A stretch of DNA of 64,000 bases from Candidatus Latescibacterota bacterium. Lineage in GTDB: Bacteria > Latescibacterota > UBA2968 > UBA8231. This document shows positions 35,725 through 60,393 of the stretch, one piece after another (positions within the stretch are counted from its first letter, which is position 1; each line of letters opens with the position of its first letter). The notes under the pieces were generated by a model. It made no database searches and was not told the DNA's origin. It saw only the letters and a program-made list of their open reading frames with translations. Where the stretch lies: assembly GCA_965223905.1 (NCBI GenBank), contig CBDCXV010000011.1, positions 2,080,001 through 2,144,000 on the forward strand, written 5' to 3'. The position numbers were made by a program, and so were the translations under genes.

Positions 35725-36723
35725 ATGCGAAACCTACTACTGCCGATCCTGGCTGCGGCCGCCTTCCTGGCCGGCTGCGGCCGCGGCGGCCCGGAAGAAG
35801 AAAGCCGCCTGAAAGTCGGCTACATCGTCAACTTCATGTCGCACGAGTGGTACCAGAACATCTGTGCCGCGGCGCAAGCGCGCGCCGATGAGCTCGGGGT
35901 CGATCTCGTCATCGCCGACGCCAACCTCGACATCGCCGCGCAGATCTCCAAGGCGGAGAACATGATCGCCCAGGGGGTCGACGTGCTGGCCCTTACCCCG
36001 GTCGACGCCAAAGCCCTCGGCGTCGTCATCGAGCAGGCCCGCGCCCGGGGCATCCGAGTGCTGACCGAATCGAACCCGGCCGTCCGCGCCGAGACCTACG
36101 TCGGCATCGACAACCTGGCGGCCGGGCGCAAGGCGGGGGACTGGTTCGTCGAGCACGTCGTCGAAACCGGGATCGATCCGAAAATCCTCGTCGTCGGCCA
36201 CCCTAACTTCGAGGACAGCCGGCACCGGGTCGACGGGTTCGTATCCGCCCTGGACGAAGCCGGCCTCTCCGGGGCGGTGGTCCAGGAAGTCGACGGTCAG
36301 GGCCTCAAGGAGAAGGCGTTCAAGGTGGCCCAGGACGCCTTGACCGCCCATCCGGAAGTCAACGTCCTCTTCGGGGTCAACGACGATTCGACCACCGGCG
36401 CCATGGCCGCCTACCGCGCCGCCGGCCTCGACGAGAGCGAGCTCCTGGCGATAGGCTTCGGGTTCGAGGGCTCGGTGGGACGCACCGCCCTGCTGGGGGA
36501 CACCCCGTACAAGGCGGCGCTGGCGATGTTCCCGCATTTCGTCGGCATCTCGATCGTCGACGCCGCCATCAGCCTCGCCGCCGGCGATACCCTGCCGGCG
36601 CATTACGAGACCCCCACCATAGTGATCACGCGCGCCAACTTCTCGCAGTTCTACGGCGGCCCCGAGAAGGGCTACCCGATGAAGATCGAGGCGGTGCGCC
36701 AGTTGATGGCCGCTTCACCTTAG
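35725..36723 (+). CDS. Sugar ABC transporter substrate-binding lipoprotein (RbsB-like)
   Basis: LAGC lipobox; VGIDN..AG and VNDD motifs. Confidence 0.9.
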   Translation: MRNLLLPILAAAAFLAGCGRGGPEEESRLKVGYIVNFMSHEWYQNICAAAQARADELGVDLVIADANLDIAAQISKAENMIAQGVDVLALTPVDAKALGVVIEQARARGIRVLTESNPAVRAETYVGIDNLAAGRKAGDWFVEHVVETGIDPKILVVGHPNFEDSRHRVDGFVSALDEAGLSGAVVQEVDGQGLKEKAFKVAQDALTAHPEVNVLFGVNDDSTTGAMAAYRAAGLDESELLAIGFGFEGSVGRTALLGDTPYKAALAMFPHFVGISIVDAAISLAAGDTLPAHYETPTIVITRANFSQFYGGPEKGYPMKIEAVRQLMAASP

Positions 36724-36742
36724 TCCGCAGCGCTGCCCGATA

Positions 36743-37711
36743 ATGCCGAACTTGCCGTCGCGCCTGCTGCAGAGCGAGCAGGCCGGCCTGCTGATCGCCC
36801 TGCTGCTCCTGTGCGCCGTCATCGCCGCGCTGTCGCCGGTCTTCCTGACGGTGGCCAACGTCACCAACATCCTGCGCGACGCCTCGCTGGTGGCGATCGC
36901 CGGCATCGGCATGGCCCTGATCATCCTGCAGGGGGAGATCGACCTCAGCGTCGGCTCGACCCAGGCGGTCGCCGGCATCCTCGCGGTCCTCGTCCTCAAC
37001 GGCAGCGGCAGCATCGCCCTGGCCTTCGCCGCGGCCTTGTGCCTCGGGGCAGGCTGCGGAGTCGCCAACGGCCTGCTCGTCACCCGCGCCGGTATCAGCT
37101 CGCTGATCGCCACCCTGGGGATGATGGCGATCCTGCGCGGCGGCGCCATGGTGTCGACGCAGGCGGTCTCCATACAGGCGGAGATCCCCGGCTTCAGCGA
37201 CATCGGCACCGGCCACCTCGGCCCCCTGCCGCTGCCGGTCGCGGTCGCCGCCTTCTTCTTCGCCCTCTTCTACTTCATCCTGCACCACACCCCCTTCGGC
37301 CGCTACATCTACGCCGTCGGCGGCAACGCCGAGGCCGCCCGCCTCGCCGGCCTTCCGGTCGAGCGGATCAAGGTGACGGTGTTCGCCATCGGCGGGGCCA
37401 TGGCCGCGATCAGCGCCTTCATCCTCGCCTCGCGCCTCAACTCCGGGCAGCCCAACGCCGGGCTCGGCTTCGAGCTGCAGGTGATCGCCGCGGTCGTGCT
37501 CGGGGGCGTCAGCCTGACCGGGGGCGTCGGGTCGCTCGCCGGGGCGATCCTCGGCATCCTCATCCTCACGGTGCTGAACAACGGCCTCGTGCTGCTCAAC
37601 GTCTCCTCCTTCTACCACGACATCGCCCGCGGCCTCGTCATCATCCTCGCCGTGTACCTCGACCGCCGCCGCCGCGATTCGGTCCTGCGCCGGCTGCTGG
37701 CGAACCCGTGA
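36743..37711 (+). CDS. Sugar ABC transporter permease (RbsC-like)
   Basis: GEIDLSVG, GRYIYAVGGNAEAARLAG and ELQVIAAVVLGG motifs. Confidence 0.95.
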   Translation: MPNLPSRLLQSEQAGLLIALLLLCAVIAALSPVFLTVANVTNILRDASLVAIAGIGMALIILQGEIDLSVGSTQAVAGILAVLVLNGSGSIALAFAAALCLGAGCGVANGLLVTRAGISSLIATLGMMAILRGGAMVSTQAVSIQAEIPGFSDIGTGHLGPLPLPVAVAAFFFALFYFILHHTPFGRYIYAVGGNAEAARLAGLPVERIKVTVFAIGGAMAAISAFILASRLNSGQPNAGLGFELQVIAAVVLGGVSLTGGVGSLAGAILGILILTVLNNGLVLLNVSSFYHDIARGLVIILAVYLDRRRRDSVLRRLLANP

Positions 37712-39204
37712 CCTCCCCGGCCCGGAACGGCGAAGCGCTCCTCGACCTGCGCGGGATCGGCAAGCGCTTCCCCGGGGTGCAGGCCCTGGCGGAGGTCGAC
37801 TTCGATCTGCGCCGGGGGGAGGTTCACTCCATCGTCGGCGAGAACGGGGCGGGCAAATCGACGCTGATCAAGATCCTCACCGGGGTGCACCAGCCGGACG
37901 CAGGCTCGTATGCCATCGACGGCCGCCCGGCCGCCGCGGACAGTCCGCGAGCGGCGATCGCCGCCGGGATCAGCGTCGTCTACCAGGAGCCGAAGCTGGT
38001 GCCCACCCTGTCGGTGGCGGAGAACATCTTCTTCGGCCGGCTCCCTTCGCGCCGGGGGCGGGTCGCCTGGCGGCGCCTGCACGAAGAGGCGGCCGCGGCC
38101 CTCGACCAGGTCGGCCTGAGGCTCGACCCGCGGCGGCAGGTCCGGCACCTCGGCATCGGCGAGCAGCAGCTCGTCGAGGTGGCGCAGGCGCTGACGCAGT
38201 CGGCCCGGGTCCTCATTCTCGACGAACCCACCTCCGCCCTCAGCCCGCGCGAGATCGAGCGGCTGTTCGCGCTGATCCGGCGGCTGAAGCAGGAGGGGGT
38301 GGCGATCGTGTACGTGTCGCACAAGCTCGAGGAGATCCTCGCGCTCTCCGACCGGGTCAGCGTGCTGCGGGACGGCAGACTGGTGCGCACCGCCCCGGTG
38401 GAGGAGCTCGACGGCGAACGGCTGATCTCCCTCATGGTGGGACGGCCGCTCGAATCCGAGGGGGCGCCCGCGCCGGCCGGCAGCGGCGTGGTCGCCCTCG
38501 AGGTGCGGAACCTGTCGACCGCCCGGGTGCGGGACGTCAGCTTCCGCGCGCACCGAGGGGAGATCGTCGGCTTCTCCGGGCTGATGGGGGCCGGCCGCAC
38601 CGAGCTCGCCCGCGCCGTCCTGGGTGCCGACCGGCGCCACCAGGGGGAGATCGAGGTAGTCGGGCACCGGCTGCTCCCCGACTCGACCGCGGCGGCCCGG
38701 CGCCTGGGGGTCGGACTGGTCCCCGAGGACCGCCGCGGCGGAGGGCTCTTCCCGGAGCAGCCGGTGCTGCACAACATGACCGTCGCCGCTCTCGACCGCT
38801 TCTGCAGCCGCGGAGTCATCAGCCCGTCCCGGGAGCGGGCCGCGGCCGCGGCCTTCGTCGAGGAGCTGTCGATCCGCACCCCTTCGCTGCGGCAGCGGAT
38901 CGCCGTGCTCAGCGGCGGCAACCAGCAGAAGGTCCTGGTGGCGCGCTGGCTGCTCAAGCAGAACCTCGAGGTGCTGTTCGTCGACGAGCCGACCCGGGGC
39001 ATCGACGTCCGCGCCCGCTTCGCCATCTACCGCCTGCTGCGGGAAATGGCGAACCGGGGACTGGCGGTGATCGTCATCTCCTCGGAGATCCCCGAGCTGC
39101 TGCGGCTGTGCAACCGCATCTACGTGATGAAGGGGGGATGCATTGTCGGTGAGCTTCCCGGGGCCGGCACCACCCCGGAGGAGTTGCTGGCGAGGGCCAT
39201 ATGA
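37708..39204 (+). CDS. Sugar ABC transporter ATP-binding protein (RbsA-like)
   Basis: GENGAGKST, ILDEPT, LSGGNQQK and DEPTRGIDV; GTG overlaps the permease stop. Confidence 0.95.
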   Translation: MTSPARNGEALLDLRGIGKRFPGVQALAEVDFDLRRGEVHSIVGENGAGKSTLIKILTGVHQPDAGSYAIDGRPAAADSPRAAIAAGISVVYQEPKLVPTLSVAENIFFGRLPSRRGRVAWRRLHEEAAAALDQVGLRLDPRRQVRHLGIGEQQLVEVAQALTQSARVLILDEPTSALSPREIERLFALIRRLKQEGVAIVYVSHKLEEILALSDRVSVLRDGRLVRTAPVEELDGERLISLMVGRPLESEGAPAPAGSGVVALEVRNLSTARVRDVSFRAHRGEIVGFSGLMGAGRTELARAVLGADRRHQGEIEVVGHRLLPDSTAAARRLGVGLVPEDRRGGGLFPEQPVLHNMTVAALDRFCSRGVISPSRERAAAAAFVEELSIRTPSLRQRIAVLSGGNQQKVLVARWLLKQNLEVLFVDEPTRGIDVRARFAIYRLLREMANRGLAVIVISSEIPELLRLCNRIYVMKGGCIVGELPGAGTTPEELLARAI

Positions 39205-39247
39205 AGATCCGCGGGGGGACCAAAAAGGCGGTGGAAGGAGGTATTCC

Positions 39248-40453
39248 GTGAATCGATTCCTGCATGAGGCAGCTTCGTACGGAGGGTTCTGTCTGGTTGC
39301 GGCGGTAGCCCTCCTCGTCAAGGGTCAACCTGTCGATGCAACACCAGAGAGCAGGGCCACGGCACTGTTCCTGCTGATCTCGCCTTCCGTGCGCGTCAAC
39401 GGGATGGGGCAGGCGGGAGTCGCTCTCGCGGACGAGCCGGCGAGTTACTACAACCCCGCGGCCGCTGCTCTCTCCTCTCCTGCGCACAGCTTCCAGGGCC
39501 GCTTCTACCTGCGCGAGATGCCGTGGCTTCCGCGTTGGCCCGACGACAAGACCTACAGCCACCGGGCCGCCCAGATCGCGGGAGGGCGGGTGTTCGACAG
39601 CCTGTCCTGGCGGGGGCCGACCAGGCTTCGAGCGGCCTTCTACGGATACCGCACGAAGGTGGATTTGGGACGATCACTACGGCACAATGAAAGAGGCGAG
39701 GTGATCGGTTCTTTCACCTTTGCAGAGGCATCCGAAAACGTCGGCGTCAGCTTGGCGTTGAGGTCCGTTGTGGAGGTAGGAATCGGTGCGGTCTCAAAGC
39801 GCATCTCATCCAGGCTGGGCGATGCAAAAGGAGCTGCCGATGCCTACGACTTCGGTCTCATGGCGGTAGTACCGATGACCGGGGCGCTCAAGCGCCTCTC
39901 CGGGCGGGAGCTTGCACTGAATCGCCACTTGCGGGTGCAACTCGACATCGGATTCGGCGTCTCCTGGCAGAATCGCGGCGAAAGAATGGACTACACCGAT
40001 GCGATGCATGCGGATCCTCTGCCGGCGAACAGGCGGCACGGATGGTCCGCCGTCCTGGCAATCGACCGGAACTCCGAATCCCTCGGTCTTCCTTTGGGGA
40101 GAATGACGTTCTCCAGGGAGACGTACCGTCCCCAGGTGGAGGGCACCCAGGTAACGAGTCGTGCCGAGGACGACAAGTGGGGAGTCGAGATCTCGTTTCT
40201 GGAGACGATCTCTGTGCGGCGGGGGAAGCACGACGATTTCGATGGTGAGGTTCACCTGAAGACTTCGGGGGGAACCATCCAGTCCGACGGTCTCTTCAGG
40301 TACATGGCACACCACCTGGAAAGCAGACCGCCCGGCTCCAGGCGGGATGGGCTTCTTTTCCTCCTCAGGCGCCTGTCGATAAGCTGGTCCTGGTTCGAGT
40401 ACGACCCGGACTGGCCGGCCCAAGGCCACTCCTATCTCGGCCTGTCCTTCTGA
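39248..40453 (+). CDS. PorV/PorQ-like outer-membrane beta-barrel
   Basis: FLLISPSVRVNGMGQAGVALAD..ASYYNPA N-terminal signature; C-terminal YLGLSF. Confidence 0.7.
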   Translation: MNRFLHEAASYGGFCLVAAVALLVKGQPVDATPESRATALFLLISPSVRVNGMGQAGVALADEPASYYNPAAAALSSPAHSFQGRFYLREMPWLPRWPDDKTYSHRAAQIAGGRVFDSLSWRGPTRLRAAFYGYRTKVDLGRSLRHNERGEVIGSFTFAEASENVGVSLALRSVVEVGIGAVSKRISSRLGDAKGAADAYDFGLMAVVPMTGALKRLSGRELALNRHLRVQLDIGFGVSWQNRGERMDYTDAMHADPLPANRRHGWSAVLAIDRNSESLGLPLGRMTFSRETYRPQVEGTQVTSRAEDDKWGVEISFLETISVRRGKHDDFDGEVHLKTSGGTIQSDGLFRYMAHHLESRPPGSRRDGLLFLLRRLSISWSWFEYDPDWPAQGHSYLGLSF

Positions 40454-40500: not shown

Positions 40501-43134
40501 TTATCCGCCCAGGTATACAGCCTTCCGCACCGCTTCCAGCCGCTCCCCAAGGTATAGAGCGATGAAGTAGACCCCGGCCCCTCTTCCCCGGGGATTCCAG
40601 GTGAAGTGGCTGATGCCGTTGGCCAGGACTTCATCCGCCAGTATCTCCTCCATCTGGCCTATGGCGTTGTATACTTTGATTGTAGCGGGCGTCCTATCCG
40701 CCAGGTCGAGCTCGAGCCGAACCGTGGAGACAAATGGATTGGGAATCGCCCCTGACAGGGTAAAGCGCACAAAATCGTTGGTTCCGCGAGGTTCGTACGC
40801 GCTGTTTACCCGGCCCGGAGTTCCCCCCGGGGAGATGGAAGCCAGCCAATTCATGGTTCGGAATTATCCAGCTCATAGTGGCGCAATTCCAGCGTGGGAC
40901 CGTCGCCGTCCGCCTCCTCCGGCCACGGACTCCTATCTCCATAGACGATGGAGTCGACCTGTAATCCATGGCGGTCGAACAGGCGAACAAGCTCTCCGCT
41001 GTTCCTCAATCCGAAATCGAAGTCTCCGATGCATGTGGTTCCCGAGAACCATTCCAGGGCCTTGCCATCCTGGCACAACACGAGAAATCCGCGCGGCTCG
41101 ACAAGCGTCCCTTCGGGCAACACGAAGGAATGCCGAATATTCCCGTCCTGAAAATTCCAACTTGAAAGATCGGCGAAAAAATCATTGGGATTGTATAATT
41201 CGACCCAATCTCCCGTATCCAGTTCATCCGCCGAGTGATAATTTATCTCGTTAATTACAATCGCTGGCGAAGTCACGTCTACAGGGCTGTAGGTTTCGTT
41301 GACCCGGGCAGCCATTTCCGTCAGTGCCGGGGTCAGCAATTTCATCGTGTCACCAGGGGCAATTTCGAAAAAGATATTTCCAATTACAGGAGAGTCGGGA
41401 AACAGGCCGCTGGCGGCGTCCCTGTTGGAAGAAAGTATCAAGCTTTCACCTGCGGCAATTTTCGTCTCGGGTGGAAAAATGAAACGGTTGAAGTATTCCC
41501 CGGATTCGAAACCGCAGTAGGACAGGTCCAATTGCAACTCACCGGTATTGATTATTTCAATGAAATACCCATCCCGTACCCTGTAAACGTCTCCAATCCG
41601 CAGCCGTCTGTACTCCTCGATACCGGCGTGATTCACATTCAAGGCGTACGTCTTCGTCGCCTTGTAATTTTATGTAGAATAACCCGTTTTGAGGGTAGCT
41701 GTAGTCTCCGGATCTGAAAGCATAGGGGACGAGTCCAGTGTAGTTTTTCGGTAGCACGAGGCGGTTGCCGTACACGAGGTCCCCGGCCTGTAGATCATCG
41801 TGTTTTCCGTCGTCGAACAGGAAGAGTTTCTTGACTGTGATTTCTTCTCCCCAGGTCTCGAAGGAGGATAGATCTGGAATATATTCGACCACTACCGACT
41901 GGGGTTGGGGCGAAGTAGCCCGAAATACCACCCCCCGATCGTCGGCCTCAGGGGAGGGAAACGGATTTGAGCAGTACAAGTTCGATAGGGGACTCTTTTC
42001 GAAAAAGGAAAAATCCGTCAGGAACGATCTCCTCGCGGCCAAGAAGCCTTTTAAACGGGAGATCTCATTGTCGAATTCGGAGGTTGTGCCAATCTTGGCT
42101 TTGTCCAGGTACACGTCCGACCTGATCAACTCGTAAGTTGAGTCGATCTGAGCCTCTACGGCGCGGAACCCCTGGTCGATGACGATTCCGACCTTTTTCC
42201 AGAACGACTCGCGCCAAGTTTCGTATTCCATCAACCTCTGAAATAGGAGGTGGTATCGAAAATGGGAGTGCTGAAAGACAGTCTCAAGCTCCGCACGGTA
42301 TTCCCCGGACCAGTGATTCCCGAAAGAAGCATCGTGATCCCAGGGCATTACTTGCTCCAGGCGCCCACGCGGGTCGAAATAGAGCAAGGTATTCTTCGTC
42401 ACTGCGTCCATATTGGAGATGGCATATGTGACTGCGTAGTATCGAAGGACACTCTCTACATTGACAATGGAGGGAATTTTCTCTTCAAAGTCCTCGTGCG
42501 TCAGATATAGGAGCTGATTGAACAGGCGCTGCAAATCGGTGTAGTTGGATTCATCCCCTGCCTTCTTGTTCCAGGAAGAAAGGTAGTTATCGTACTCCAG
42601 CAACGGCGCTGTACTGCCTCCGTGATCCTCGGATTTGTAGAGACTTCCGAGCTCATACTCGTAGCGACTCAGGAAGTCTTTGTTCGGCTCCTCTACCTGG
42701 ACAAAGACGCCCATAAAGTCGTCGTTGACGATCAGACTGACGTGGTTGGTATTCGGGGCCGGATGGCCGAGGAATTGAAACAGCTTCATGGTCAGGACGT
42801 TGCGCATCAATGAAAGATCAGTGTATTCCGCATTAAGATTGACCTCTCTTGCTCCGATGGGATTTGAGCGATCCTCAAACCAGATTTTCCAACTTTTCTT
42901 TCGGTACTCACGGGCCGTGGCACCACGGAATCGAACTTGGCACTCTCGAGACTGTCCGGCGAAGGTGAATCGGGCGGGATAGCGGACGTCGCTGCGTGGT
43001 GCCTTATAAAGTGAACTCAGGTCGTCGGGATCGACGGTCAGGCGATATGCAGGCAGTTCGAGCCGTTGATCCTGGGCCTGCAGGAAGGGTGCATGAATAA
43101 CCACCAGGAAAAAAACGGGAGCCAGCGACCTCAT
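40501..43134 (-). CDS. Secreted CotH-family kinase + lamin-tail domain(s) + T9SS-like tail, split by two apparent 1-nt frameshifts (~41669, ~40855)
   Basis: RFRGATAR..KKSWKI, NLNAEYTD.SLMRN, PWDHDASFG; VINEINYHS..GDWVELYN; PNPF...GVYFI...RKAVYL. Confidence 0.75.
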
Positions 43135-43335
43135 TTCCAGAAAACCTTTACAGAGGATCCGAAGGGCGACCCGGACCGCCCCTGCCGTCCCGGCGAAGGG
43201 CGCCAAGTCCTGCACGCAAGTCGCTGCGACGCGCTGGGCCTCCCCGTCCTCCGAAAGGCCGGTGATCGATCAAGGCCTGAGAGATGGCCGTGCAGGGGAA
43301 ACAGGCCGGCAAAGGGAAGGGAATCGGTAGAGGCC

Positions 43336-44106
43336 TCACACTGCGATGTCGTTTCGGCTACCGAGGCGCTCGAGACAGTGGTCGATCACGTAGCGGTATT
43401 TCGAGTATCCGCGCTGGACCAGGGAGAACCGCTTGATGAGGTCCAGCGCCCAGAAGGGCACCAGGGATTCGGTCTTGATCTCCATAACGACGGGGGACTC
43501 CGCCCACTGCGCGGTGACCGCGTCGTCGTAGTAGCTCATCTCCTCATCATGGCCCGACAGGTCGTACGAGCCGCGCATCAGCCGGTAGCGCATACCGCGG
43601 TCGAACGTAATGCGTCCGTACGCGTCCACGTCGCTGACGAAGGGCTCCCGGTGGTAGCGGAGATGGAGCACGGGCGCGGTGCCGTACAGATGATGGACAT
43701 CGACGAAGGACCGCGGCAGGGCCTCGTACGTCGGCGAGGTGCGTTCGCTCCTGGCGATTTCGAGCACCCCGGGCCACTCCGCTGCGGCGATTCGGTCGCG
43801 GACCTTCCAGACGGTGCGGTTGTGGCGGTACTTGACCTCGAGGGTGACATACTCGACCGCGCCGGTGCCGTAAAAACGGATTCTCGGTTTGAACCGCAGC
43901 AGCTGACGCAGCCTGGTGTCGTGGTAGAAGCGCAACCCGGGAGTATCCATGTACACGCTGTTGACCGTGTAGCTTCCCTGCTCCGTGGGGACGTTGGCGT
44001 CGATGGAAAACAGCGGTTGAATGAAATCGCGGATTTCGGCGGCCTGCGGCTCGGTCACCGTGTACTTCAACTCGTAGCGGTGGACCGCGGGCAGCTCAAC
44101 CGCCAT
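43336..44106 (-). CDS. VTC / polyphosphate-polymerase-domain protein (CYTH/TTM fold)
   Basis: RYELKY, VNSVYMDT, KPRIRFYG, LEVK, YHREPF, RITFD, MEIK and YSKY motifs. Confidence 0.9.
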   Translation of the reverse strand: MAVELPAVHRYELKYTVTEPQAAEIRDFIQPLFSIDANVPTEQGSYTVNSVYMDTPGLRFYHDTRLRQLLRFKPRIRFYGTGAVEYVTLEVKYRHNRTVWKVRDRIAAAEWPGVLEIARSERTSPTYEALPRSFVDVHHLYGTAPVLHLRYHREPFVSDVDAYGRITFDRGMRYRLMRGSYDLSGHDEEMSYYDDAVTAQWAESPVVMEIKTESLVPFWALDLIKRFSLVQRGYSKYRYVIDHCLERLGSRNDIAV

Positions 44107-45409
44107 CGTGGGCCTCCTCCTCCTGCAGGACCCCCGGACCCTCGATGCCCAGCTCGTAGAAAAGGAAATAGAGCGCGTGCGCCAGATCGCGCTGGCTCTC
44201 GGCGATTGCGACCCGCGCATCCATGATCGTGCGCTCGAGCTCCAGGATCTCGTCAGCCGGCACGGTAGGGTAGGCCCGGGTCTCGGCGATCACCTGCGAC
44301 GAGCCCTGGATGATGGCCTCGCCCTCCCGGAGAGTCAGGTCGCGGGCGAGCAATGCCTCCGTGTAGTCGGAGAGCGTTTCGCGGACCTCCTCGGCGATGC
44401 GCTCGCGAACGGAGAGGACCTCGAGCGCGCTTCCCGACACCGCAAGGGAAACGCCGGCCAGGTTGCCCGCATTGCGGTTGAAGAGGGGGAGCTCGAGGCC
44501 GAAGACCAGCTCATGCCAGTCTTCTTCGGACCGCTCGAAGTGTCGCGAAACCTCCAGGAAGGACAACTGCGGCAGCAGTCGCCAGCTCTCGAGGTTTCGC
44601 CTTTCGAGGGCGAGTTGTCGCTGCTCCTCGGCCAACCGAAGCTCCGGGCGGTTGGCGTAGGCGAGGACGAGGAGTCGCTCTTCATTCAAGGCGACTTCGG
44701 GAAGCGGCTCCGAAAGCACCCGGGTCTGCGTGGAGATACCGGTGAGTCGTCGCAACCTGCGCTCTTCCTCCCGCAGTGCGTGCAAGCTGCGAAGGTGACC
44801 CTGGCGCGCCTCGGCAACGACCGTTTTTGCCTTGGTGAAGTAGACGATCGACCTCCGGCCGAGGGCCATCATGGTCTCGATCTGGGAGATCCGCAGGTGC
44901 TCATTCTCAACCCGCCGGGCGGCGATGCGGGCCAGTTCGGCATGCATGGCGATATCGGCGCAGGACCGGCGCACTCGCGAAGCCAGCCAATGCCGCTCCC
45001 TCACCGCCTCCACCTTGCGCTCCCACAAGGCTACCTGCTTCCGCTGCCGTCGCGCTCCCACCTCACCGAGGGAAGGAGGACGCCAGCGGATGCCGATCTC
45101 GAGTTCGTCGAACCGGGCCCTCCCGCGCCGAGAGGCCAGGTTGCGGACGCGCAGCTCCGGATTGTCGATCCAGTCGAGCGAGCGAATCCGGTGGGTGCGA
45201 ACGTCCGTCTCCGTTTCGAACGCACGCAGCCGCGGGTTGTTGTCCAAACCCACCGCCACCGTTTCTTCAATCGTCAGGGGCACCCCGCCCTTGTTGCCGG
45301 CGTTGTGAACGCCCGGGGCTTCGCCCGGGAGATCGGCCGAGGCTGCCGTCGAACCGGGGATCGCAACGAAAGGGGCCAGCACCACGAGAAACCGGCCGCC
45401 TGCTCTCAT
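44096..45409 (-). CDS. TolC-family outer-membrane factor
   Basis: Signal peptide; LTIEETVAVGLDNNPRL, ANRPEL and LELPLFNRNAG; coiled-coil character. Confidence 0.8.
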   Translation of the reverse strand: MRAGGRFLVVLAPFVAIPGSTAASADLPGEAPGVHNAGNKGGVPLTIEETVAVGLDNNPRLRAFETETDVRTHRIRSLDWIDNPELRVRNLASRRGRARFDELEIGIRWRPPSLGEVGARRQRKQVALWERKVEAVRERHWLASRVRRSCADIAMHAELARIAARRVENEHLRISQIETMMALGRRSIVYFTKAKTVVAEARQGHLRSLHALREEERRLRRLTGISTQTRVLSEPLPEVALNEERLLVLAYANRPELRLAEEQRQLALERRNLESWRLLPQLSFLEVSRHFERSEEDWHELVFGLELPLFNRNAGNLAGVSLAVSGSALEVLSVRERIAEEVRETLSDYTEALLARDLTLREGEAIIQGSSQVIAETRAYPTVPADEILELERTIMDARVAIAESQRDLAHALYFLFYELGIEGPGVLQEEEAHDGG

Positions 45410-46497
45410 CGCCCCGGTCTCCCGATTTCCGGATCGCTCTCTTCCGCGAAGGCGCCCCACGGTGCGGACGGGCGATCGGCAAGGCGTACGCGTACGGACT
45501 CGCCGGGCAGCAGGAGGTGGCCCGGCTCGAGGAGGACACGGGCCCTTCTGGCCCACAACATCTGCCCGCGCAGCCACAGCCTCTCGGGCATCGGTGAGTA
45601 CCCAGGATGCACGAAGTCGATCCTCCCCCTGGCGTCGAACTCGCTCGACCGCCTCGACATCACTTCCACCTCCTGTCCGACATCGAACTGCAGGTCCTCC
45701 GTCTCCGGGACGTACACTTCAACCGCGGAGGCGTCGGCGCTCCCCACGGAAACAATGGGCACGAAAGCATCGACCGTACTTCCCTGCAAGGCCAGGATCT
45801 CGGAGACCGATCCCGCACACGGCGACCTGACCGTCCGGTACTCGATGCGCTGATCGATCAGGGCGAGGGACTGCCGGACCTCGTGCTGGCGCTGCACGCG
45901 GTCGCCGAGAAGCGAAATCATGATGCTGTCGCCATAGGCACCCGAATCGCCGGCGCCAAGCTTGAGCACGTCGGGCCGAATCAGCGCCGACTGTCCGGCT
46001 ACCGACTGCGCCAGGGCATCGCGGCGGATGGTCATGCGGGTGAGATCGCGGTCGTGTCCCAGGCCGGCTTTCTCCGCTGCCACAAGCGCGGCGATTTCCC
46101 GGCCGAGGGCCTCGAGCTCGGCCTCCTCCGCCTGGACTGCCGCGTACTGCTCGGACACGCGCAGCCGCAACAGGTCGTACTCGACGCTGTATCGACGCCG
46201 GTCTGCAGATACTATCGACTCCAGGGCGGCCAGCTCTTCTTGACGCAGTCGCTTTTCCGCCAACAGGTCGGAGGCGTCCAGGCGAGCCAGGACCTGGCCG
46301 GCCACGACGCTTTCCCCCACTGCGGTACTCACCTCCTGGATGGTACCTCCCTCGCGAGCGCCCACCGAGCGCACCGTCGATACCACCGTGCCGATCAGAT
46401 ACGGGTCGGCACGCCACTCCCGATAGCCGGTGGCCGCGGCAAGCACGCCCGCCACCCACAGGGCACGGAAAGAGTTCCTCCTCAGCCAGCGCTTCAT
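45406..46497 (-). CDS. HlyD-family periplasmic adaptor
   Basis: N-terminal TM; lipoyl halves GTIQEV..GESVVAGQVLARLD and VRSPCAGSV flanking a coiled coil; LLPGESVRV. Confidence 0.85.
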   Translation of the reverse strand: MKRWLRRNSFRALWVAGVLAAATGYREWRADPYLIGTVVSTVRSVGAREGGTIQEVSTAVGESVVAGQVLARLDASDLLAEKRLRQEELAALESIVSADRRRYSVEYDLLRLRVSEQYAAVQAEEAELEALGREIAALVAAEKAGLGHDRDLTRMTIRRDALAQSVAGQSALIRPDVLKLGAGDSGAYGDSIMISLLGDRVQRQHEVRQSLALIDQRIEYRTVRSPCAGSVSEILALQGSTVDAFVPIVSVGSADASAVEVYVPETEDLQFDVGQEVEVMSRRSSEFDARGRIDFVHPGYSPMPERLWLRGQMLWARRARVLLEPGHLLLPGESVRVRLADRPSAPWGAFAEESDPEIGRPGR

Positions 46498-46500
46498 CCA

Positions 46501-47181
46501 CTACACCTCTACGGCAGAGGAGTGGTTCATGAAGGTCAGCCCGCGTATGCCTTCGATCTGTCCGAGAACCTCGATCAGCCGCGTCGAGTCCGCTTCGTCG
46601 GCGAGTTTCACCTGGTAGGTGCAGTCGACGAGATCGCCCTGGGCGACGTCCCGCATGGTGACCAGGGCGAACGTTCTCGGTACCTCTTGCAGTATCCGGG
46701 CCACCTGGGCGGCAAAGGTCGGCCCCGCCGGTATCTGGAAGCGCACGAGTCCATCGAATTTCATCCGCGTGCCGAACAGCGACGCGTGCATGACTACCGC
46801 GATCGTACAGAACAGGGCGGTTGCGAAGGTGGCGGCGAGGTAGCTCTGAACGCCGCAGGCTACCCCGGCACCAAGAGCAGCGAAGAGGAACACCAGATCG
46901 CGCGGATCGCGCAGGTTGGTGCGAAAACGGATGATGGCCAGCGACCCCACGATACCGATGCCCCGGGCGACGTTGTCGCCGATCGCAATCATCAGCAGAC
47001 AGGTGATGATGCTGCCGAGAACCATGGTCTGCATCAAACCGCGAGACCAGGACAGGCCCTGGAACGTCCACTCGTACACCATTGCGATTATGCTCGAAAG
47101 GCAAAAGGCGAATACCAGAGAGAGCAGAACCTGGTTCCAGTGGAGTTTGATCGTTCCGAAATCGAGCAACAGACTATCCAT
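46501..47181 (-). CDS. DUF4956 membrane protein
   Basis: IGDNVARGIGIVGSLAIIRFRTNLRDPRDLVFLF..GVACG signature; TM helices plus a soluble C-terminal domain. Confidence 0.85.
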   Translation of the reverse strand: MDSLLLDFGTIKLHWNQVLLSLVFAFCLSSIIAMVYEWTFQGLSWSRGLMQTMVLGSIITCLLMIAIGDNVARGIGIVGSLAIIRFRTNLRDPRDLVFLFAALGAGVACGVQSYLAATFATALFCTIAVVMHASLFGTRMKFDGLVRFQIPAGPTFAAQVARILQEVPRTFALVTMRDVAQGDLVDCTYQVKLADEADSTRLIEVLGQIEGIRGLTFMNHSSAVEV

Positions 47182-47999
47182 CAGACACTGACTCCCGAGT
47201 AACCTTCAAAAGGCGGGGTAGAGGAAGGGGCAAGCCTTTCCGAACATACTGTAAACATTACAAATACACCACCAAGTCAACGGTGCGTCAACCCCGGTTC
47301 CAGTTGAAACGGATCACAGACAAGGGTGAATGCCAGCCGTCATGGCGACCTGTTTGATGCCAAGCTGCCCATTGTCGGATTACCGCGAAGGGAGATATCG
47401 GTTGCCCTGCTACATTCCCACTCCCGGGCGTGACCGTCGTAGCGTGTTCCGATCTGTCCGGAGCCTTGCCAGCCATCCCTGAACCACAGGCACGCCGGGT
47501 CGTTCTTCCGCATGGTTCGTCAGAACCATGCGCGCCGTTGTCTCCCGGGACGAGGGAACCGGGGTGGGCTCGGATATGCGTGGAACACCCCAAAATTTGC
47601 TGGGCGGGAGCCAATAGGCAACCACAAAGCCCGTGGCGGAAGTCACCAGGAGCGGAACTCCCACGACGCCGGTCAGAAAACGACCTCCGGGAAAACGGGA
47701 AGCCTCCAATTGCCGGCCCACCCGATCCGACGCCCGGACCACCTCTATCACCAGTGGACAGTGCCCTCGATTCGAGACCCGGCCCGGTGTTCCAGCACCG
47801 GGTGGAGCACACCCCCCAATGTTGCACGAACCCGGTTACTTCCATTAGATAACTCATCTAGATAACGCATCAAGTAGAAAACCCAGCGAGGGCGCCCGGA
47901 CGAATGAAAGCTCACCCCCATTCCACGACATGGATAAGAATGAGACCGACCATCAATTCGTTGGGGCCTCAAGCCGGGAAAGCATGCCGAAGTAAATAC

Positions 48000-49490
48000 A
48001 TGGCGGTAATCGCATGTTTATGCCTGGCAGGCTTCAATTGTTGCACTGACGGAAGCCTTTCCCCGCCCGGGGAGGCGGGGTCTTCCATAGAAATCATTTC
48101 CCCGGAAAGGACCACCCTTGACAGCTACTTTCCTATCATAATCCGGGCTCTTGACAGGGAGGGAGGGACCGATACGAATGTGAACATGGAGACCCCGGTG
48201 ACGGCGGGAAACACCGTAGAGTCCATTACCCTGAAAAAAGGGATGGGATCGGCTTTGATCATCTCCCAGGATGCCCCGGGGGGAGCCCTTTTCCTGGAAA
48301 CGACGAGCGGTTCAAGAGTCGTCTCCCTGGTGGATTCGTTCCCCGTAGAAGAATACTCGGGACAACTGAAGCCGGGATTGCACACATGGGACAGGTCAAA
48401 AGACCGTTACGTCGCCGGGGAGTTGGTAGTGCCAACCGGGACAACCCTGGTTATTGAGGAAGGAACCCGGATCCTCCTGGGAAGCGGAGCGGACGTTGTT
48501 GTTCACGGCAGGATCCAGGCGAAAGGAACATTGGAACGGCCGATCGTCTACATGTCCAGCCAATGGAAGCATCCTTGGGGGGGAATTGAAGTAGTGGAAG
48601 GACGAGCCGAATTCACCCATAGCTTTTTTGTCAATGGAGGGGCGAATCGAAAAAAGGTTTTCGGCCATTCCAACAGCCAGGCGGTGGTAATGGCCAGAAG
48701 GGCCGACGTGCGCTTGACCGCCTGTTATTTTCTCGATAATCCTGGCAAGGCCCTGGGAGGTTGGGAGAGTCATTTGACTATCGACCGGTGCCTGATATCA
48801 CGTTGCGACACCGGAGGAGAATTCGAAAGCAGTGTCGCCCTGATTTCGAATACACACGTAATAGACATTCCCAACGGAGACGGCGTTTTCGTCGATGATG
48901 ACAACGATGGATTCTATTTCAATTCGGTCTATCCGCAAGCAGAAACGCCCTCGCTGGTCAGAGACTCGTTTGTTATAACGGGCAAGGACGACGCCATAGA
49001 TCACAATGGGGCGCTCCTGGAGATCCGCAATTGCTGGCTGGAAGGATTCGCGCATGAAGGGGTAGCGGCGTCAAACGACAATTGGGTGCAGATATTCAAC
49101 ACCGTGATCAGGGGATGCGAGCAGGGAATAGAGGCCGGGTACGGACGACCACGAGTCCTGGTCGACCACTGCGTCGTGGTGGAAAATGGGGTGGGCCTGC
49201 GATTCGGGGATTCGTACGATTGGGGGTCGGAGGGACACATGATCGTGTCAAATTCCATTATTTTCAACAACAAGGACAACATCCTGAATCATGACCTGAA
49301 GACCGGGAAGGCAGTCCAGGGGGCCATTGTCGTCGACCATAGCCTCGTTGCGGATTCCGAACTAGATTCTTCGGCCACCGTCTGGGGCGCAGTACCCCTG
49401 TTCGACGAGAACTACCGCCTGCTGCCTTCCTCCCCGGGGATAGGTCGGGCCGTCGATGGCTCGGACATAGGATTGGTTGATCTGGATTAG
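48000..49490 (+). CDS. Secreted or lipoprotein right-handed beta-helix protein (start uncertain; ORF open from 47904)
   Basis: Hydrophobic N-terminus with Cys; TLVIEEGT..GRIQAKGT..PIVY..WGGI; DDDNDGFY, DDAIDHNG; YRLLPSSPGIG..GSDIG. Confidence 0.7.
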   Translation: MAVIACLCLAGFNCCTDGSLSPPGEAGSSIEIISPERTTLDSYFPIIIRALDREGGTDTNVNMETPVTAGNTVESITLKKGMGSALIISQDAPGGALFLETTSGSRVVSLVDSFPVEEYSGQLKPGLHTWDRSKDRYVAGELVVPTGTTLVIEEGTRILLGSGADVVVHGRIQAKGTLERPIVYMSSQWKHPWGGIEVVEGRAEFTHSFFVNGGANRKKVFGHSNSQAVVMARRADVRLTACYFLDNPGKALGGWESHLTIDRCLISRCDTGGEFESSVALISNTHVIDIPNGDGVFVDDDNDGFYFNSVYPQAETPSLVRDSFVITGKDDAIDHNGALLEIRNCWLEGFAHEGVAASNDNWVQIFNTVIRGCEQGIEAGYGRPRVLVDHCVVVENGVGLRFGDSYDWGSEGHMIVSNSIIFNNKDNILNHDLKTGKAVQGAIVVDHSLVADSELDSSATVWGAVPLFDENYRLLPSSPGIGRAVDGSDIGLVDLD

Positions 49491-50347
49491 GAATCCCGTG
49501 ATTTCCCTTGGGAAACTGGCACTTGCCAGGGATTTACGCAATTGGGCCGGCGCCCATGCAGTTATCTCCGCGCGCTTGGCCATAGCTCTGCTTTTCATGG
49601 GGATCAACCAAGCCCGGTCGGAAAGTGCGAGTGGGATTGCTGAATATTACATCACCTGTGATCCGGACAGCTTTGAATATATCTATGAGAACTACAAACG
49701 AGACCACTATATATCGGTCCACGTTACCCATGGAGAGGAGACATGGCACGACGCCGGGATGCGAATCCGCGGGGACAGCTCGCGGGAACTGGAGAAGAAA
49801 TCCCTCAAGATATGGTTTCCCACGACACCCTTCCTTGACGGCAAGGAGAAATTGAATTTCAACGCTGAGTTTCTGGATAAAAGCTATTTGCGCACGGTCC
49901 TTGCCAGCCGACTGTTCAGGGATACCGGACATCCCGGGTTTCTTGCGGAGTATGCGCGGATTTTCCTCAACGATAAATTCTTCGGCCTTTATGTCCGGGT
50001 AGAAAACATGGACAAGGATTTTTTGAGGCGGAACGATCTGAACACGGATGGAAATCTGTACAAGGCCTATCTTGATGGAGCCTCATTGACAATGGCTGAC
50101 GACATCTCTATCCGTTGGGAGAAAAAAACCAACGATGATGAGGATCGAAGCGATTTGCGAAACCTGATCTTTCTGCTCAACCAAGTTCCCGACATCGAGT
50201 TCCTGAACTTCGCCCGCGGTTATTTTAACTACGACAGAATGATCAATTCCATAACTCTCAATATGCTCTTGGCGAATGGCAGTACCTACTACCACAACTA
50301 CTACATGTTCCACGACATCGGGGGGGATGGGAAATGGTCCATGTTTC

Positions 50348-51811
50348 GGGTCTATCCGGGTTTTTCAACGCCGAAACGTAAGTACGGAAAGTACCTGAGC
50401 CCTTGCTGTCCATCTGAGTACATGACAAGGCCATAGGTCGTTCCCTATGCTTGGTGTATCCCCATCAAGCACTCCCCAAGAAAGGGAAGGGAAGGCGACC
50501 TATGACCGCTATGAAGTTCGTCTCCAAGCTGTTCCAATTCAAGGGATTTCGCGCGGTGGGCGTGTGGTTCGAAGGACACGGGGAAGAAGCGGCCGTCGTG
50601 GTCGCGGTGAAGCCCCAAAGGAACGGGTGCCGGTGTCCCGAGTGTGGGCGCCGCGGCAAGATCGTACAGGTCATGGAGTTCCGCCGCTGGCGCGACGTCC
50701 GCGTTTGCGGCCGTACCCTCTGGTTGCACCACGCCCCTCGGGAGATCCGCTGCCCGACCCACGGCCGTCGCGTCGAGGAGGTGCCCTGGGCGGCGCCCTC
50801 GGCCCAGGTCAGCTACCGCTTCGAATACCTGCTGCTGAGGTACTGCCAGTGGATGACGCAGGCCGCCGCCGCGCGCCTGCTGGGTCTGGCCCCGTCGACC
50901 CTGTCCGACCAGCTGCACCGGCTCATCGAGCGCCGGCGTACGGGGCACCGCATCCGCCGGCTGAAGACCCTCGGCATCGACGAGATCTCCTACGCCAAGG
51001 GCCATAAATACGCTACCCTGGTCTACGACCTGGAACGCTCCCGTGTCGTCTGGGTCGGCAAGGGCAAGGCACGGAAGACCATCGACGCGTTTTTCCGGGA
51101 CCATCTCAGCGCCTTCCAGAAGGACCGCATCCGCTGGGCCTGCTGCGACCTGAGCGAGACCTTCATCGGCGCCATCCGGCAGCATGGTCCCAACGCCGAG
51201 TTGGTCCTGGACCGATTCCACGTCGTCAAGGCCCTCAACGAAGCCGTCGACGAGGTGCGCAAGGAGCAGTGGCGGCAAGCCTGTGGCGAGGACCGCAAGC
51301 TGCTCAAGGGCCTGCGCTGGGTGCTGCTGCATCACTCCGCCCAGCGCTCGCGAAAGGATCGGCGCACGCTCCAAACCCTGGAGAAGGCCAACCGCCGCAT
51401 CTACCGCGCCTGGCGCCTGAAGGACGAGTTCGAGCACTTCTGGCGCTACAAGGCGCGCTGGGCCGCCGAACGCTTCCTCAAGAAGTGGACGACGGCGGCC
51501 CTGCGCAGCCGCCTGCAGCCCCTGCGCAAGTTCGTCAACACGGTGCGCAAGCAGGCGGCCGGCATCACCGCCTTCGTCGACACGCACCTGACCAACGCCG
51601 CCGCCGAAGGGCTCAATCGCATTATCCGCATGGTCAAGAATCGAGCCAGTGGATTTAAAACTCTGGATGCCTTTGCCGACCTGATTTACCTGTGCGTCGG
51701 AGACCTCGATATCCCTGCGCAGATTCCGGCCCGATTCCGTACAGTATGAAACCCTAAAAATCTCATTGGGGAAACGCTATAAATACCACGTTGAAAAACC
51801 CGTATATAGCC
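50348..51811 (+). mobile_element. ISL3-family insertion sequence
   Basis: 23-bp terminal IRs (gggtctatccgggtttttcaacg vs reverse complement ggctatatacgggtttttcaacg, 20/23); 8-bp TSD catgtttc at 50340-50347 and 51812-51819. Confidence 0.95.
50502..51749 (+). CDS. ISL3 transposase
   Basis: CPECG/CPTH zinc finger, GIDEISY..GHKY, CCD, DRFHV and TNAAAEGLN motifs. Confidence 0.95.
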   Translation: MTAMKFVSKLFQFKGFRAVGVWFEGHGEEAAVVVAVKPQRNGCRCPECGRRGKIVQVMEFRRWRDVRVCGRTLWLHHAPREIRCPTHGRRVEEVPWAAPSAQVSYRFEYLLLRYCQWMTQAAAARLLGLAPSTLSDQLHRLIERRRTGHRIRRLKTLGIDEISYAKGHKYATLVYDLERSRVVWVGKGKARKTIDAFFRDHLSAFQKDRIRWACCDLSETFIGAIRQHGPNAELVLDRFHVVKALNEAVDEVRKEQWRQACGEDRKLLKGLRWVLLHHSAQRSRKDRRTLQTLEKANRRIYRAWRLKDEFEHFWRYKARWAAERFLKKWTTAALRSRLQPLRKFVNTVRKQAAGITAFVDTHLTNAAAEGLNRIIRMVKNRASGFKTLDAFADLIYLCVGDLDIPAQIPARFRTV

Positions 51812-53558
51812 CATGTTTCCCTGGGATACCGACAAAACCTTCAGTAAGTACGGTATAGACTATCCCTATCATCGCAGTTACCAGCCCCCCAGGCATCCGG
51901 GGCGTTGGGACAATCCGTTTCTTGAACGGGCCCTTCAGAACGACACCATATTTGCAGACATCCAGGACCGCGTCAGGGAATTGAGTCTGACCCACTTCGA
52001 TCCGGAATATCTTTTCGCGCTGATAGACAGCCTTCAGGCGCTACTGGCCCCGAGTGTCGCACTTGACAGGACGGACGATGTTGCAGACCTGGCACAGTGG
52101 AGGAGGCAGATAAATTCCGAGCGCGGCTACATACAGTCGCGCGCTTCCCGCCTCCAGGAGCAATTCGAGAAATGGCCTTCCCCTTTCCAGACCCTGGGAC
52201 TGCGTTGGATCGAGGAAACTCCCTGGTTGGTCTGGCAAACCTCGGACAAATCCACCACCTACACCCTGAAGTACGGCAAGGAGCGCACGCTCCCCGAGGA
52301 CGGAACCCGGACAATTGAAGGCTTGACCGACACCGCTTACGCCCTTCAGTCGGACCTACCCTCCGGGAAGTATTTCTGGAATGTAGAAGCCTTCAACAGC
52401 TACGGGTCCTTCGAGGCTTTCGACAGCAAAGCCACTTTCGTTTTTACGAAACACCTGAGGGAGAGAACACCCGAAACCGACGATGTCGTAATTATCAACG
52501 AATTGAACTATCGCTCCGCCGATGATTTCGACGCTGGTGACTGGATAGAGTTGTACAACCCTCAGAATCGGACAATCGATGTTTCCGGGTGGTATCTCAA
52601 GGATAACCGGGACGACCATACTTTCTTTATCCCCAATTCCACCTATATCGGCAGAAATACCTATCTCGTTTTGTGCCAAAACAGGGACGATTTTCTGGCT
52701 CTATTCCCCAAGATCCGTACCTGCGCTGGAGACTGGGATTTTGGGCTGGATCGCGCCTCCGAATCAGTCAGGGTCTTTGATTCCAACGGGACGTTGGTCG
52801 ATTTCGTTGCTTACCGAAACGAACTTCCCTGGCCTGTCGAGGCTGACGGGACAGGCTCAACTCTTCAGCTTATCAAGGCTGAATCGGACAATCGGTCGGC
52901 AGCAAACTGGGGGGCATCCTCCCGGCACGGGTCTCCGGGGGAGGCCAATGATCCAATCCGTCTCCCAGCAGGGGAAGCCATGAGCAGTTACCCGAATCCC
53001 TTTAATGAGGCCACCACCATTTCTTTTTTCCTTTTTGAAGGAGCCCTGTGTTCCTTGACTATTTTCGACATTCGAGGGGCCCAGATCATCAAGTTGTTGG
53101 ACGAATGGAGACCCTCGGGTTTTCACCAAGTGATCTGGGATGGGAACAATCAAAAAAACAATCGTGTAGCAAGCGGCGTGTACATTGCTCACCTGAAAGG
53201 TCCTGAGGGAATTGGCGAGGCCCAAAAGATTGTCCTGCTCAGGTAGTCCGCTGAGCAACATGTAGGGTGCTTGTGTTTCACAGAAAAAAGCCTGGCTTCC
53301 TTACCTGCGAGTTCGCGGGGCTGGGAGAGTTTCGCACCTGTTTCAGTTTGCAGAGTGCAGCTGAAAATGGGAGAACGCCTCCGGCTACCGAGTACCACCG
53401 GGACGCGAAAGGGTTAAACCTCGAACGCTGATACAGCCCTTTCGTGAGGGGCACTTCAGGATGCTGGTGCATCCGTGCCGGCAGGTGCCACGGTTCTCAA
53501 AAATGGTATGGCTTGAGTTCTGCGTGTATGCACTGCTGGGGGTAGCGGTGCTGATTGA

Positions 53559-60023: not shown

Positions 60024-60393
60024 CGCACCGCGGGATCGGCGTTGTGCCGTTTGCGCCCTGGTATCATCCAAGTTTCCGGGTAGGGCTGACAGTTCCTGCA
60101 CGCACCATTCCACGTGAATTCGATTCGGGCTGCGGTCCGGCGCGCAGGCATCGGCGCTCGAAAAGCCGGGACAATTGGCGATTTGCGGCCGTCGAGGGCC
60201 TCCCGGGTTCCCGGGTTTGAGGGGCCGCTGCTGGAACCATCCCGCCCGGTCCGGGTCCGTCCGCCGGGCCCCGTCATCTATTCGACGATTCGAGGAAGGT
60301 CGGGTTTCTCAGATCGGCAAAGCCAGGCCGGTGCTGCCGCCCGAAAGTCAGCGAAAAGGTAACTCGGCGTACCGGAGAGCGCCTTCGACCTCG

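Follow-up and report, generated by a model that had tools for sequence, protein, structure and literature searches.

We analyzed a stretch of 64,000 nucleotides from the genome of a Candidatus Latescibacterota bacterium (contig CBDCXV010000011.1, positions 2,080,001 to 2,144,000), below called the window, and found in it a cassette of four genes that encode a DUF4956 membrane protein, an HlyD-like periplasmic adaptor, a TolC-family outer-membrane duct and a soluble, Vtc4-like enzyme of the VTC family. The cassette represents a real, widespread and undescribed system, for which we propose the following mechanism: a pump-less duct, with DUF4956 as its inner-membrane partner, would deliver a phosphoryl donor to kinases outside the cell, and this donor would most likely be polyphosphate from the VTC enzyme. 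On the basis of the sequences we assign this reading as a whole a probability of roughly 0.45.

The four genes are tightly coupled, as had been predicted originally: the DUF4956 and HlyD genes are separated by 3 nt, the HlyD and TolC genes overlap in an ATGA and the TolC and VTC genes overlap by 11 nt, and Pfam matches place the products in the families named (Table 1). The adaptor consists of an N-terminal membrane helix, lipoyl, coiled-coil and barrel parts, its match to RND_mfp (2.7e-18) stays below the cut-off, and it lacks the C-terminal phytase-like propeller that is found fused in many relatives; the TolC-like protein has a signal-like N-terminal stretch. The predicted lack of a pump of the ATP-binding cassette (ABC), resistance-nodulation-division (RND) or major facilitator superfamily (MFS) type also holds, as no such exporter was found in or beside the cassette within the window. 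The nearest ABC genes (35725-39321) are sugar-importer-like, as judged by their translations rather than by a scan. The genome (7.9 Mb, 11 contigs) contains a second copy of the cassette on contig C2, with 98.5% identity over 3.9 kb, which lies behind a different, intact CotH gene of 1011 amino acids (aa).

Table 1. The cassette and the features that surround it in the window (positions of the window)
Feature	Position	Strand	Remarks
DUF4956 membrane protein	47181-46501	-	226 aa; PF16316 E 5.8e-11; proposed inner-membrane duct partner
HlyD-like periplasmic adaptor (subfamily HlyD-A)	46497-45406	-	363 aa; HlyD_D23 1.3e-11, HlyD_3, biotin-lipoyl
OEP/TolC-family outer-membrane duct	45409-44096	-	437 aa; PF02321 2.2e-13 over residues 1-400
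VTC-domain triphosphate-tunnel enzyme, Vtc4-like, soluble	44106-43336	-	256 aa; PF09359 1.8e-28
CotH kinase-LTD-C-terminal sorting-like domain gene, broken	ATG 43134 to stop 40501	-	CotH 3.8e-57, LTD 5e-22
Right-handed beta-helix protein, divergent from the cassette	47904-49490	+	PF13229 2.7e-10; beside CotH also in loci L009 and L033
Second CotH-LTD-FlgD/T9SS-type tail gene, interrupted	49477-53246	+	CotH halves 1.6e-36 and 1.2e-9
ISL3 insertion sequence, 1464 bp	about 50348-51811	+	transposase 50451-51749; NF033550 5e-89; 9-bp direct repeat

Conservation of the adaptor and the duct

The HlyD-A profile mostly recovered relatives of 650-720 aa in which the adaptor is fused to a phytase-like propeller, and from a GTDB scan with this fused family the best 80 of 136 confirmed stretches were examined. 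These loci came from Myxococcota, KSB1, Calditrichota, Marinimicrobia, Ignavibacteria, Acidobacteriota, Bdellovibrionales and Binatia. DUF4956 was encoded directly upstream of the adaptor in 73/80 and TolC directly downstream in 71/80; since the set was picked by its adaptor, these numbers show how often the adaptor has DUF4956 and not the reverse. A VTC gene was present within the fetched stretch of 64 loci. Of the seven loci without an adjacent DUF4956 gene three are cut by contig ends, as are about six of the 16 in which VTC is missing, and three Sorangium genomes that lack an adjacent VTC gene carry one elsewhere. The position of VTC varies (after TolC, before DUF4956 or convergent) and the order DUF4956-HlyD-TolC is constant. 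The fused propeller (e.g. L044:4386-5273; L044-L123) is DUF6929/DUF6910-like, with invariant acidic and several invariant basic residues, and the best that its profile retrieved from the PDB was UVR8, at E 0.39.

To survey the neighbourhoods for pumps, 1487 genes were called in loci L003-L123, the 1010 genes unmatched by our own profiles were clustered, and Pfam was run on 32 representatives and 45 chosen neighbours. Among these no recurring pump was recovered and exporters of the ABC and MFS types were absent; an RND gene occurred in one cluster of three loci, on the opposite strand. The survey thus bore out that the HlyD/TolC linkage is conserved and comes without a recurring pump. The neighbours that did recur were LTD proteins with sorting-type tails, CotH, SdiA/phytase-type propellers and PPDK_N (ATP-grasp) proteins. 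The latter, many with a lipoprotein-like signal, occur in 23 loci (e.g. L089:4925-6988) and also beside divergent DUF4956 genes (L193, L198); it is possible that they are ATP-using or ATP-regenerating enzymes outside the cytoplasm.

The reverse approach, starting from VTC and DUF4956, recovered two adaptor families. VTC was found in 41 of the 168 genomes of the own phylum that were searched, and of the 47 matches in genomes other than this one 40 were fetched: 13 loci carried HlyD-A with TolC, 19 carried a second family, HlyD-B, directly upstream of VTC-DUF4956, and eight (two of them near contig ends) had no adaptor. A further sample comprised 251 genomes of the phylum of an Ignavibacteriaceae genome (G168; phylum inferred to be Bacteroidota), from which 40 of 81 DUF4956 matches were fetched: 13 with HlyD-A, 14 with HlyD-B and 13 without adaptor. 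Together both families flank 32/40 loci in the former phylum and 27/40 in the latter. HlyD-B proteins are divergent, measure ~350 aa and are mostly missed by Pfam (L005, L007, L008, L010-L012, L014-L022, L024-L027, L124, L163-L165 and others). In a quick tree that comprised 130 DUF4956 proteins, the two adaptor types lie on separate clades (A 82 rows, support 85; B 31 rows, support 87), which shows clustering only and not independent events, since kin share labels.

A comparison of diderm with monoderm species, as had been suggested, found the adaptors in the diderms. A plasmid collection, from which 8 of 9 matches were fetched, contained five monoderm records, all with VTC-DUF4956 (5/5) and none with an adaptor or TolC (0/5); of its other records, Hymenobacter has HlyD-B-DUF4956-TolC, Chondrinema has DUF4956-HlyD-A and Sinorhizobium has DUF4956 alone. 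The carriers include cultured Sorangium, Polyangium, Hymenobacter and Chondrinema records. The adaptor-less DUF4956 loci often lie near a gene for an outer-membrane barrel, either phosphate-selective porin O/P or DUF2490 (L006, L013, L032, L192; L183, L187), which perhaps provides another exit route. DUF4956 and DUF2490 appear together in PMC10434189, in the accessible text of that article only in a table.

DUF4956, the VTC enzyme and the associated kinases

Within the 251-genome sample DUF4956 is present in 77 genomes and VTC in 38, all of which also contain DUF4956 and CotH, and in the own phylum DUF4956 accompanies VTC in 41/41 genomes (in one as an adjacent fragment) and CotH does so in 37/41. 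CotH occurs in 73 of the 77 DUF4956 genomes and in 26 of the 174 without DUF4956, raw counts over genomes that are kin and not independent. The recurrent VTC-DUF4956-CotH linkage that had been noted originally is therewith substantiated, and it extends to the controls, where the same 3 of 14 genomes hold all three genes (Bacteroides thetaiotaomicron, Corynebacterium glutamicum and Methanosarcina acetivorans). The steadiest functional companion of the DUF4956 duct is an extracytoplasmic kinase.

The VTC enzyme was compared with structurally characterized proteins using profiles of 26 and of 93 bacterial sequences. Below E 0.01 these matched only Vtc4, Vtc2 and Vtc3 chains in the PDB (best 2e-25), and no hydrolytic tunnel enzyme in the PDB was matched even at E<=10. 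By hand count on the profile alignment, R10, K14, R75, R77, E90, K92, K101 and R103 are equivalent to Vtc4 R196, K200, R264, R266, E279, K281, K294 and R296, and Y151, R153, R165, E209, K211, S235 and K236 to Y359, R361, R373, E426, K428, S457 and K458; all fifteen are kept in 89-93 of 93 rows. The equivalents of K200, R264, R266, K281 and E426 are those which we take to have catalytic or metal-related roles. K458 of Vtc4 is named as catalytic in the accessible text of PMC4641920, according to which hydrolytic tunnel enzymes carry a patch of four glutamates where Vtc4 is basic. In our own motif-based mapping three of these four sites are basic in the bacterial enzyme (R10, K92, K211) and the fourth, E12, is acidic. 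The profile and the conserved tunnel residues support the Vtc4-like character that had been predicted, and make polymerase a better reading of the putative activity than hydrolase. No SPX domain was found in the 256-aa protein, which consists of the tunnel domain only. The 'VTC' of PMC6514570 is an unrelated domain.

The structural model of DUF4956 (pLDDT 80.7, pTM 0.61) has five N-terminal helices, which constitute the membrane part, and a C-terminal domain with the ACT fold, in which fold searches (Foldseek, VIA) found likeness to NikR, RelA-type ACT domains and the C-terminal domains of MgtC (7qa5, 2lqj). The VIA scores were Z 11.5 for NikR (root-mean-square deviation 2.7, 85 residues aligned) and Z 9.2 for the MgtC domain (3.2, 89 aligned). 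At the sequence level the MgtC family (PF02308) matched at E 0.0032 with 18.3 bits, which is below the curated cut-off of 31.4. R85 and R87 are invariant in 93 rows. The DUF4956 profile retrieved nothing meaningful from the PDB, and no link to the yeast VTC channel; no fold match was listed for the membrane part, which was barely probed because the ACT domain filled the lists. The proposal that DUF4956 is the channel of the system is weakened by this lack of a sequence or fold link, as far as the membrane part was probed. The profile of the TolC family matches SilC (1e-29), CusC, OprM and TolC over most of their length, and R87 and R108 are kept in 66/70 and 69/70 sequences. A positively charged TolC lumen was considered and found unsupported, the net charge being unremarkable in a comparison with a rough control alignment.

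A sister subfamily of DUF4956 (~280-340 aa) has two copies in this genome (C9:810931-817075, L203; C11:65438-69418, L204) and further members in L205-L220. Its loci encode an Omp85-barrel protein (18/18) and an SdiA/phytase-type propeller (17/18), and VTC, adaptor and TolC are not fixed neighbours. The Omp85 partner is a secreted protein of ~900 aa, often with a patatin-Omp85 gene upstream, and its unnamed N-terminal domain bears kinase-like motifs; sequence searches with this domain gave no PDB match, the comparison with CotH gave hhalign probabilities of 1.7-21.6%, and the atlas score was 0.75.

The proposed mechanism and its alternatives

In the mechanism that we propose, the VTC enzyme, which has kept the tunnel of Vtc4, would polymerise the gamma-phosphates of ATP. 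The polyanion would cross the inner membrane by way of DUF4956 oligomers, in which the invariant RFR motif on the cytoplasmic side would be the entry and the ACT domain a possible docking or regulatory site, and HlyD and TolC, by analogy with their homologs, would span the periplasm and the outer membrane. The donor would then feed the CotH kinases, which are predicted to lie outside the cell, either directly or after conversion to ATP, and these may phosphorylate targets on the surface or in the matrix. VTC was found in no genome that lacks DUF4956, and its gene shows translational coupling to the unit; this would suit a product that is passed straight to a channel. The parts of the mechanism differ in strength: that DUF4956 serves the duct as its inner-membrane partner is very probable, that the cargo is a phosphoryl donor for kinases outside the cell is reasonably likely, and that this donor is polyphosphate is a tentative choice with slightly less than an even chance.

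Several observations weigh against this mechanism. Foremost, 39 of the 77 DUF4956 genomes in the sample have no VTC match. Ten loci of one clade carry DUF4956-HlyD-TolC followed by a short-chain dehydrogenase/reductase (SDR) gene instead of VTC, and five genomes of this clade gave zero PF09359 matches at E<=1. CotH, conversely, occurs without the cassette in 26 sampled genomes and in 32 genomes of the own phylum, and it was found within the fetched stretch of just 35 of the 80 adaptor-chosen loci. CotH is known as an ATP-using kinase, and both CotH genes of the window are broken while the cassette is intact. The 13 of 40 sampled diderm loci without adaptor and the lack of an adjacent TolC gene at most HlyD-B loci weigh in the same direction. 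The conserved basic residues of DUF4956 lie just near the helix ends and none is found mid-helix, where the accessible text of PMC9911596 describes a yeast VTC pore lined with Lys/Arg along TM1, and the TolC family, with a median net charge of -4.5, is not more positively charged than 9 other OEP matches in the genome. Finally, E12 of the VTC enzyme, at the position of Thr198 in Vtc4, is invariant (93/93), so that hydrolase activity is conceivable.

The clade without VTC has the context YceI-DUF6580-DUF4956-HlyD-TolC-SDR, with several CotH genes (L166-L168, L170, L173, L176-L180). The 241-aa gene that follows TolC in it was considered as a divergent VTC and rejected, as it encodes the SDR. In five further VTC-negative genomes a renewed search (profile A4, E<=1) gave one match, of 31 residues, at E 0.027. 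PPK1 is present in all five genomes checked, four of which lack VTC, and these four have 4-5 CotH genes each. Because DUF4956-HlyD-TolC occurs in genomes without a VTC match, the duct is independent of VTC, and the original view of VTC as an obligatory motor has to be abandoned; DUF4956 and the duct form the fixed core, within the distribution of which VTC is nested. A drive other than VTC polymerisation would therefore be needed in the carriers without VTC. In the mechanism as we propose it VTC would be a supply module that can be detached, and in lineages that lack VTC the duct may be fed from PPK1 polyphosphate or ATP.

The main rival to polyphosphate is ATP: the same pump-less duct could export ATP or another nucleotide for ATP-using enzymes outside the cytoplasm, with VTC as an accessory for phosphate storage or recycling inside. 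This would agree with the fact that DUF4956 tracks CotH better than it tracks VTC, as CotH is present in 35 of the 39 DUF4956 genomes without VTC, where the median number of CotH copies is 4 (1 in genomes without DUF4956). It would also agree with the PPDK_N proteins, most with a lipoprotein-like signal, and with the sister subfamily, which lacks VTC and is paired with an Omp85-barrel protein bearing kinase-like motifs. The invariable pairing of VTC with DUF4956 (38/38; 41/41) and its translational coupling to the unit speak against an accessory role, however, the PPK1 genes keep a supply of polyphosphate possible in the genomes checked, and the case for a kinase in the sister partner is weak. 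We consider the export of ATP unlikely on balance.

Alternatively, HlyD and TolC could serve a conventional pump encoded elsewhere, for the secretion of proteins or small molecules, and merely be co-regulated with VTC-DUF4956. The genome indeed has 16 HlyD-like and 11 OEP-like matches and at least one RND system, one clade joins the trio to an SDR and not to VTC, and the mostly TolC-less HlyD-B loci imply that parts are shared. The position of DUF4956 directly upstream of the adaptor in 73/80 loci from several phyla argues against such a loose association, as does the finding that each of the two adaptor families goes with a DUF4956 clade; moreover, the CotH proteins have an export route of their own, because they carry signal-like N-termini and FlgD-type tails or tails of the type IX secretion system (T9SS). 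A separate pump thus appears improbable. Least probable is that VTC is a triphosphatase or short-chain polyphosphatase in a unit for phosphate scavenging or detoxification, in which the propeller in the periplasm and the kinases would work on phosphates outside the cell and HlyD/TolC would expel a by-product: the invariant E12, the propeller fused to the adaptor in 78/80 loci (a set itself selected by the propeller family), the SdiA/phytase-like genes that recur nearby, the phosphate-selective porin O/P genes near some adaptor-less loci and a tunnel enzyme of plant origin, its centre like that of Vtc4, that turned out to be a hydrolase (PMC4641920, accessible text) are outweighed by a profile that matches Vtc4/2/3 alone, by three acidic-patch sites that are basic as in Vtc4, by the invariant K458 equivalent, by the outward working of HlyD/TolC ducts and by the absence of the propeller from this adaptor copy.

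Returning to the export of a phosphoryl donor through a pump-less duct, a still more tentative generalization is that DUF4956 represents a widespread, undescribed class of inner-membrane phosphoryl-donor exporters. Together with VTC it could act as a split equivalent, in bacteria, of the yeast VTC complex, which would synthesize polyphosphate and extrude the growing chain. In the diderms HlyD/TolC may have been recruited at least twice, by way of different adaptor families, and the resulting tripartite exporter, with an inner-membrane partner of a new class, would power protein kinases at the cell surface.

Flanking genes, known systems and implications

The secreted CotH genes that were predicted to flank the cassette are present with the expected domains, and neither is intact. 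The downstream gene, whose CotH domain scores over the curated cut-off, carries two frameshifts, near 41668 and 40854, that divide it into three frames. Both frameshifts are present in sequencing run X1 and absent from X3 and X5, runs that stem from two other studies, and they are therefore real and strain-specific; assembly error was rejected as an explanation, since the X1 contigs match exactly and the other strains differ (X1 may be the source sample). The divergent CotH gene is interrupted by the ISL3 element, of which 17 further copies at >=99% exist in the genome (18 in total; blastn). An intact 746-aa relative in locus L033 aligns to both halves of this CotH, and run X5 shows the empty insertion site. 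The damage to both CotH genes is thus real and strain-specific, and the cassette itself was spared. In another genome of the same genus (L037, L038) related elements disrupt DUF4956 in one cassette copy and CotH beside the other. The beta-helix gene that was expected divergently from the cassette is confirmed by its Pfam match.

The window also contains a PorV/PorQ-like barrel gene (39143-40453, +), convergent with the downstream CotH gene, and, because of this gene and the many FlgD/T9SS-type tails in the window, a T9SS-like secretion route is suggested. The gene at 57279-60113 (-) encodes a secreted metalloprotease of the M6 family (immune inhibitor A-like), which has a beta-helix and a FlgD-type tail. 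The downstream CotH has full-domain homology to the Bacillus spore-coat kinase CotH (PDB 5jd9, the B. cereus structure, E 8e-35), from which it differs by a signal-like N-terminus, an LTD and a sorting-type tail, besides being disrupted in this strain. B. subtilis has CotH and lacks both VTC and DUF4956 in the control genome search. CotH is called a Ser/Thr kinase in the accessible text of PMC7821199.

Among the known systems, the yeast VTC complex (Vtc4/Vtc3 or Vtc2/Vtc1; PDB 3g3q, 7ytj, 8i6v, 9umg), which couples polyphosphate synthesis to membrane passage (PMC9911596, accessible text), shares the homologous tunnel enzyme with the same aligned residues, and the bacterial enzyme is likewise always paired with a small membrane protein. 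In contrast to yeast there is no SPX and no fused membrane domain, the partner DUF4956 carries an ACT domain and has no detected likeness to Vtc1, Glu12 takes the place of Thr198, an HlyD/TolC duct is added, and VTC is dispensable in some lineages that keep the duct. With the tripartite efflux and type I secretion systems (AcrAB-TolC, EmrAB-TolC, MacAB-TolC, HlyBD-TolC, CusCBA) the unit shares a periplasmic adaptor followed by an OEP duct, whereas it has no ABC, RND or MFS partner, its sole membrane protein is the 226-aa DUF4956 protein and many of its adaptors are fused to a propeller. The unit thus falls outside both groups and likely works like a hybrid of the two. DUF4956 further shares membrane helices and a C-terminal ACT domain with MgtC/SapB and is distinguished from it by a G-x-x-G...IIRFR motif; to our knowledge MgtC is not known as an inner-membrane part of a TolC duct.

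The VTC-DUF4956-CotH linkage as such has been reported: Whitfield et al. (bioRxiv 10.1101/768473) describe cotH-PPP(VTC)-DUF4956-DUF4832 as accessory genes beside Gram-positive pel operons, of a function that is left untested in the accessible text of that preprint. Those loci are monoderm, the same text mentions no adaptor or duct, and the Pel polysaccharide genes with which they are associated were not seen here. A published account of the link with adaptor and duct was not found in a literature search that covered few subscription journals. A 2026 preprint (PMC13484657) reports in its accessible text PPK-independent extracellular polyphosphate in Bacillus cereus, of which source and export route are given as unknown; since the species, according to the same preprint, has no VTC4 homologue, the cassette is no direct explanation of that case.

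The unit offers a concrete four-gene hypothesis for extracellular polyphosphate and for the donor supply of secreted CotH kinases, for which we know of no explanation to date, and in DUF4956 the TolC ducts may have an inner-membrane partner of a new class. The core pair VTC-DUF4956 is accessible in tractable hosts, namely the three control species named above. If the proposed mechanism is true, the unit would indicate that the polyphosphate polymerase of eukaryotes has a relative in bacteria, would constitute a PPK-independent route to extracellular polyphosphate and would answer how secreted bacterial kinases obtain their phosphate.

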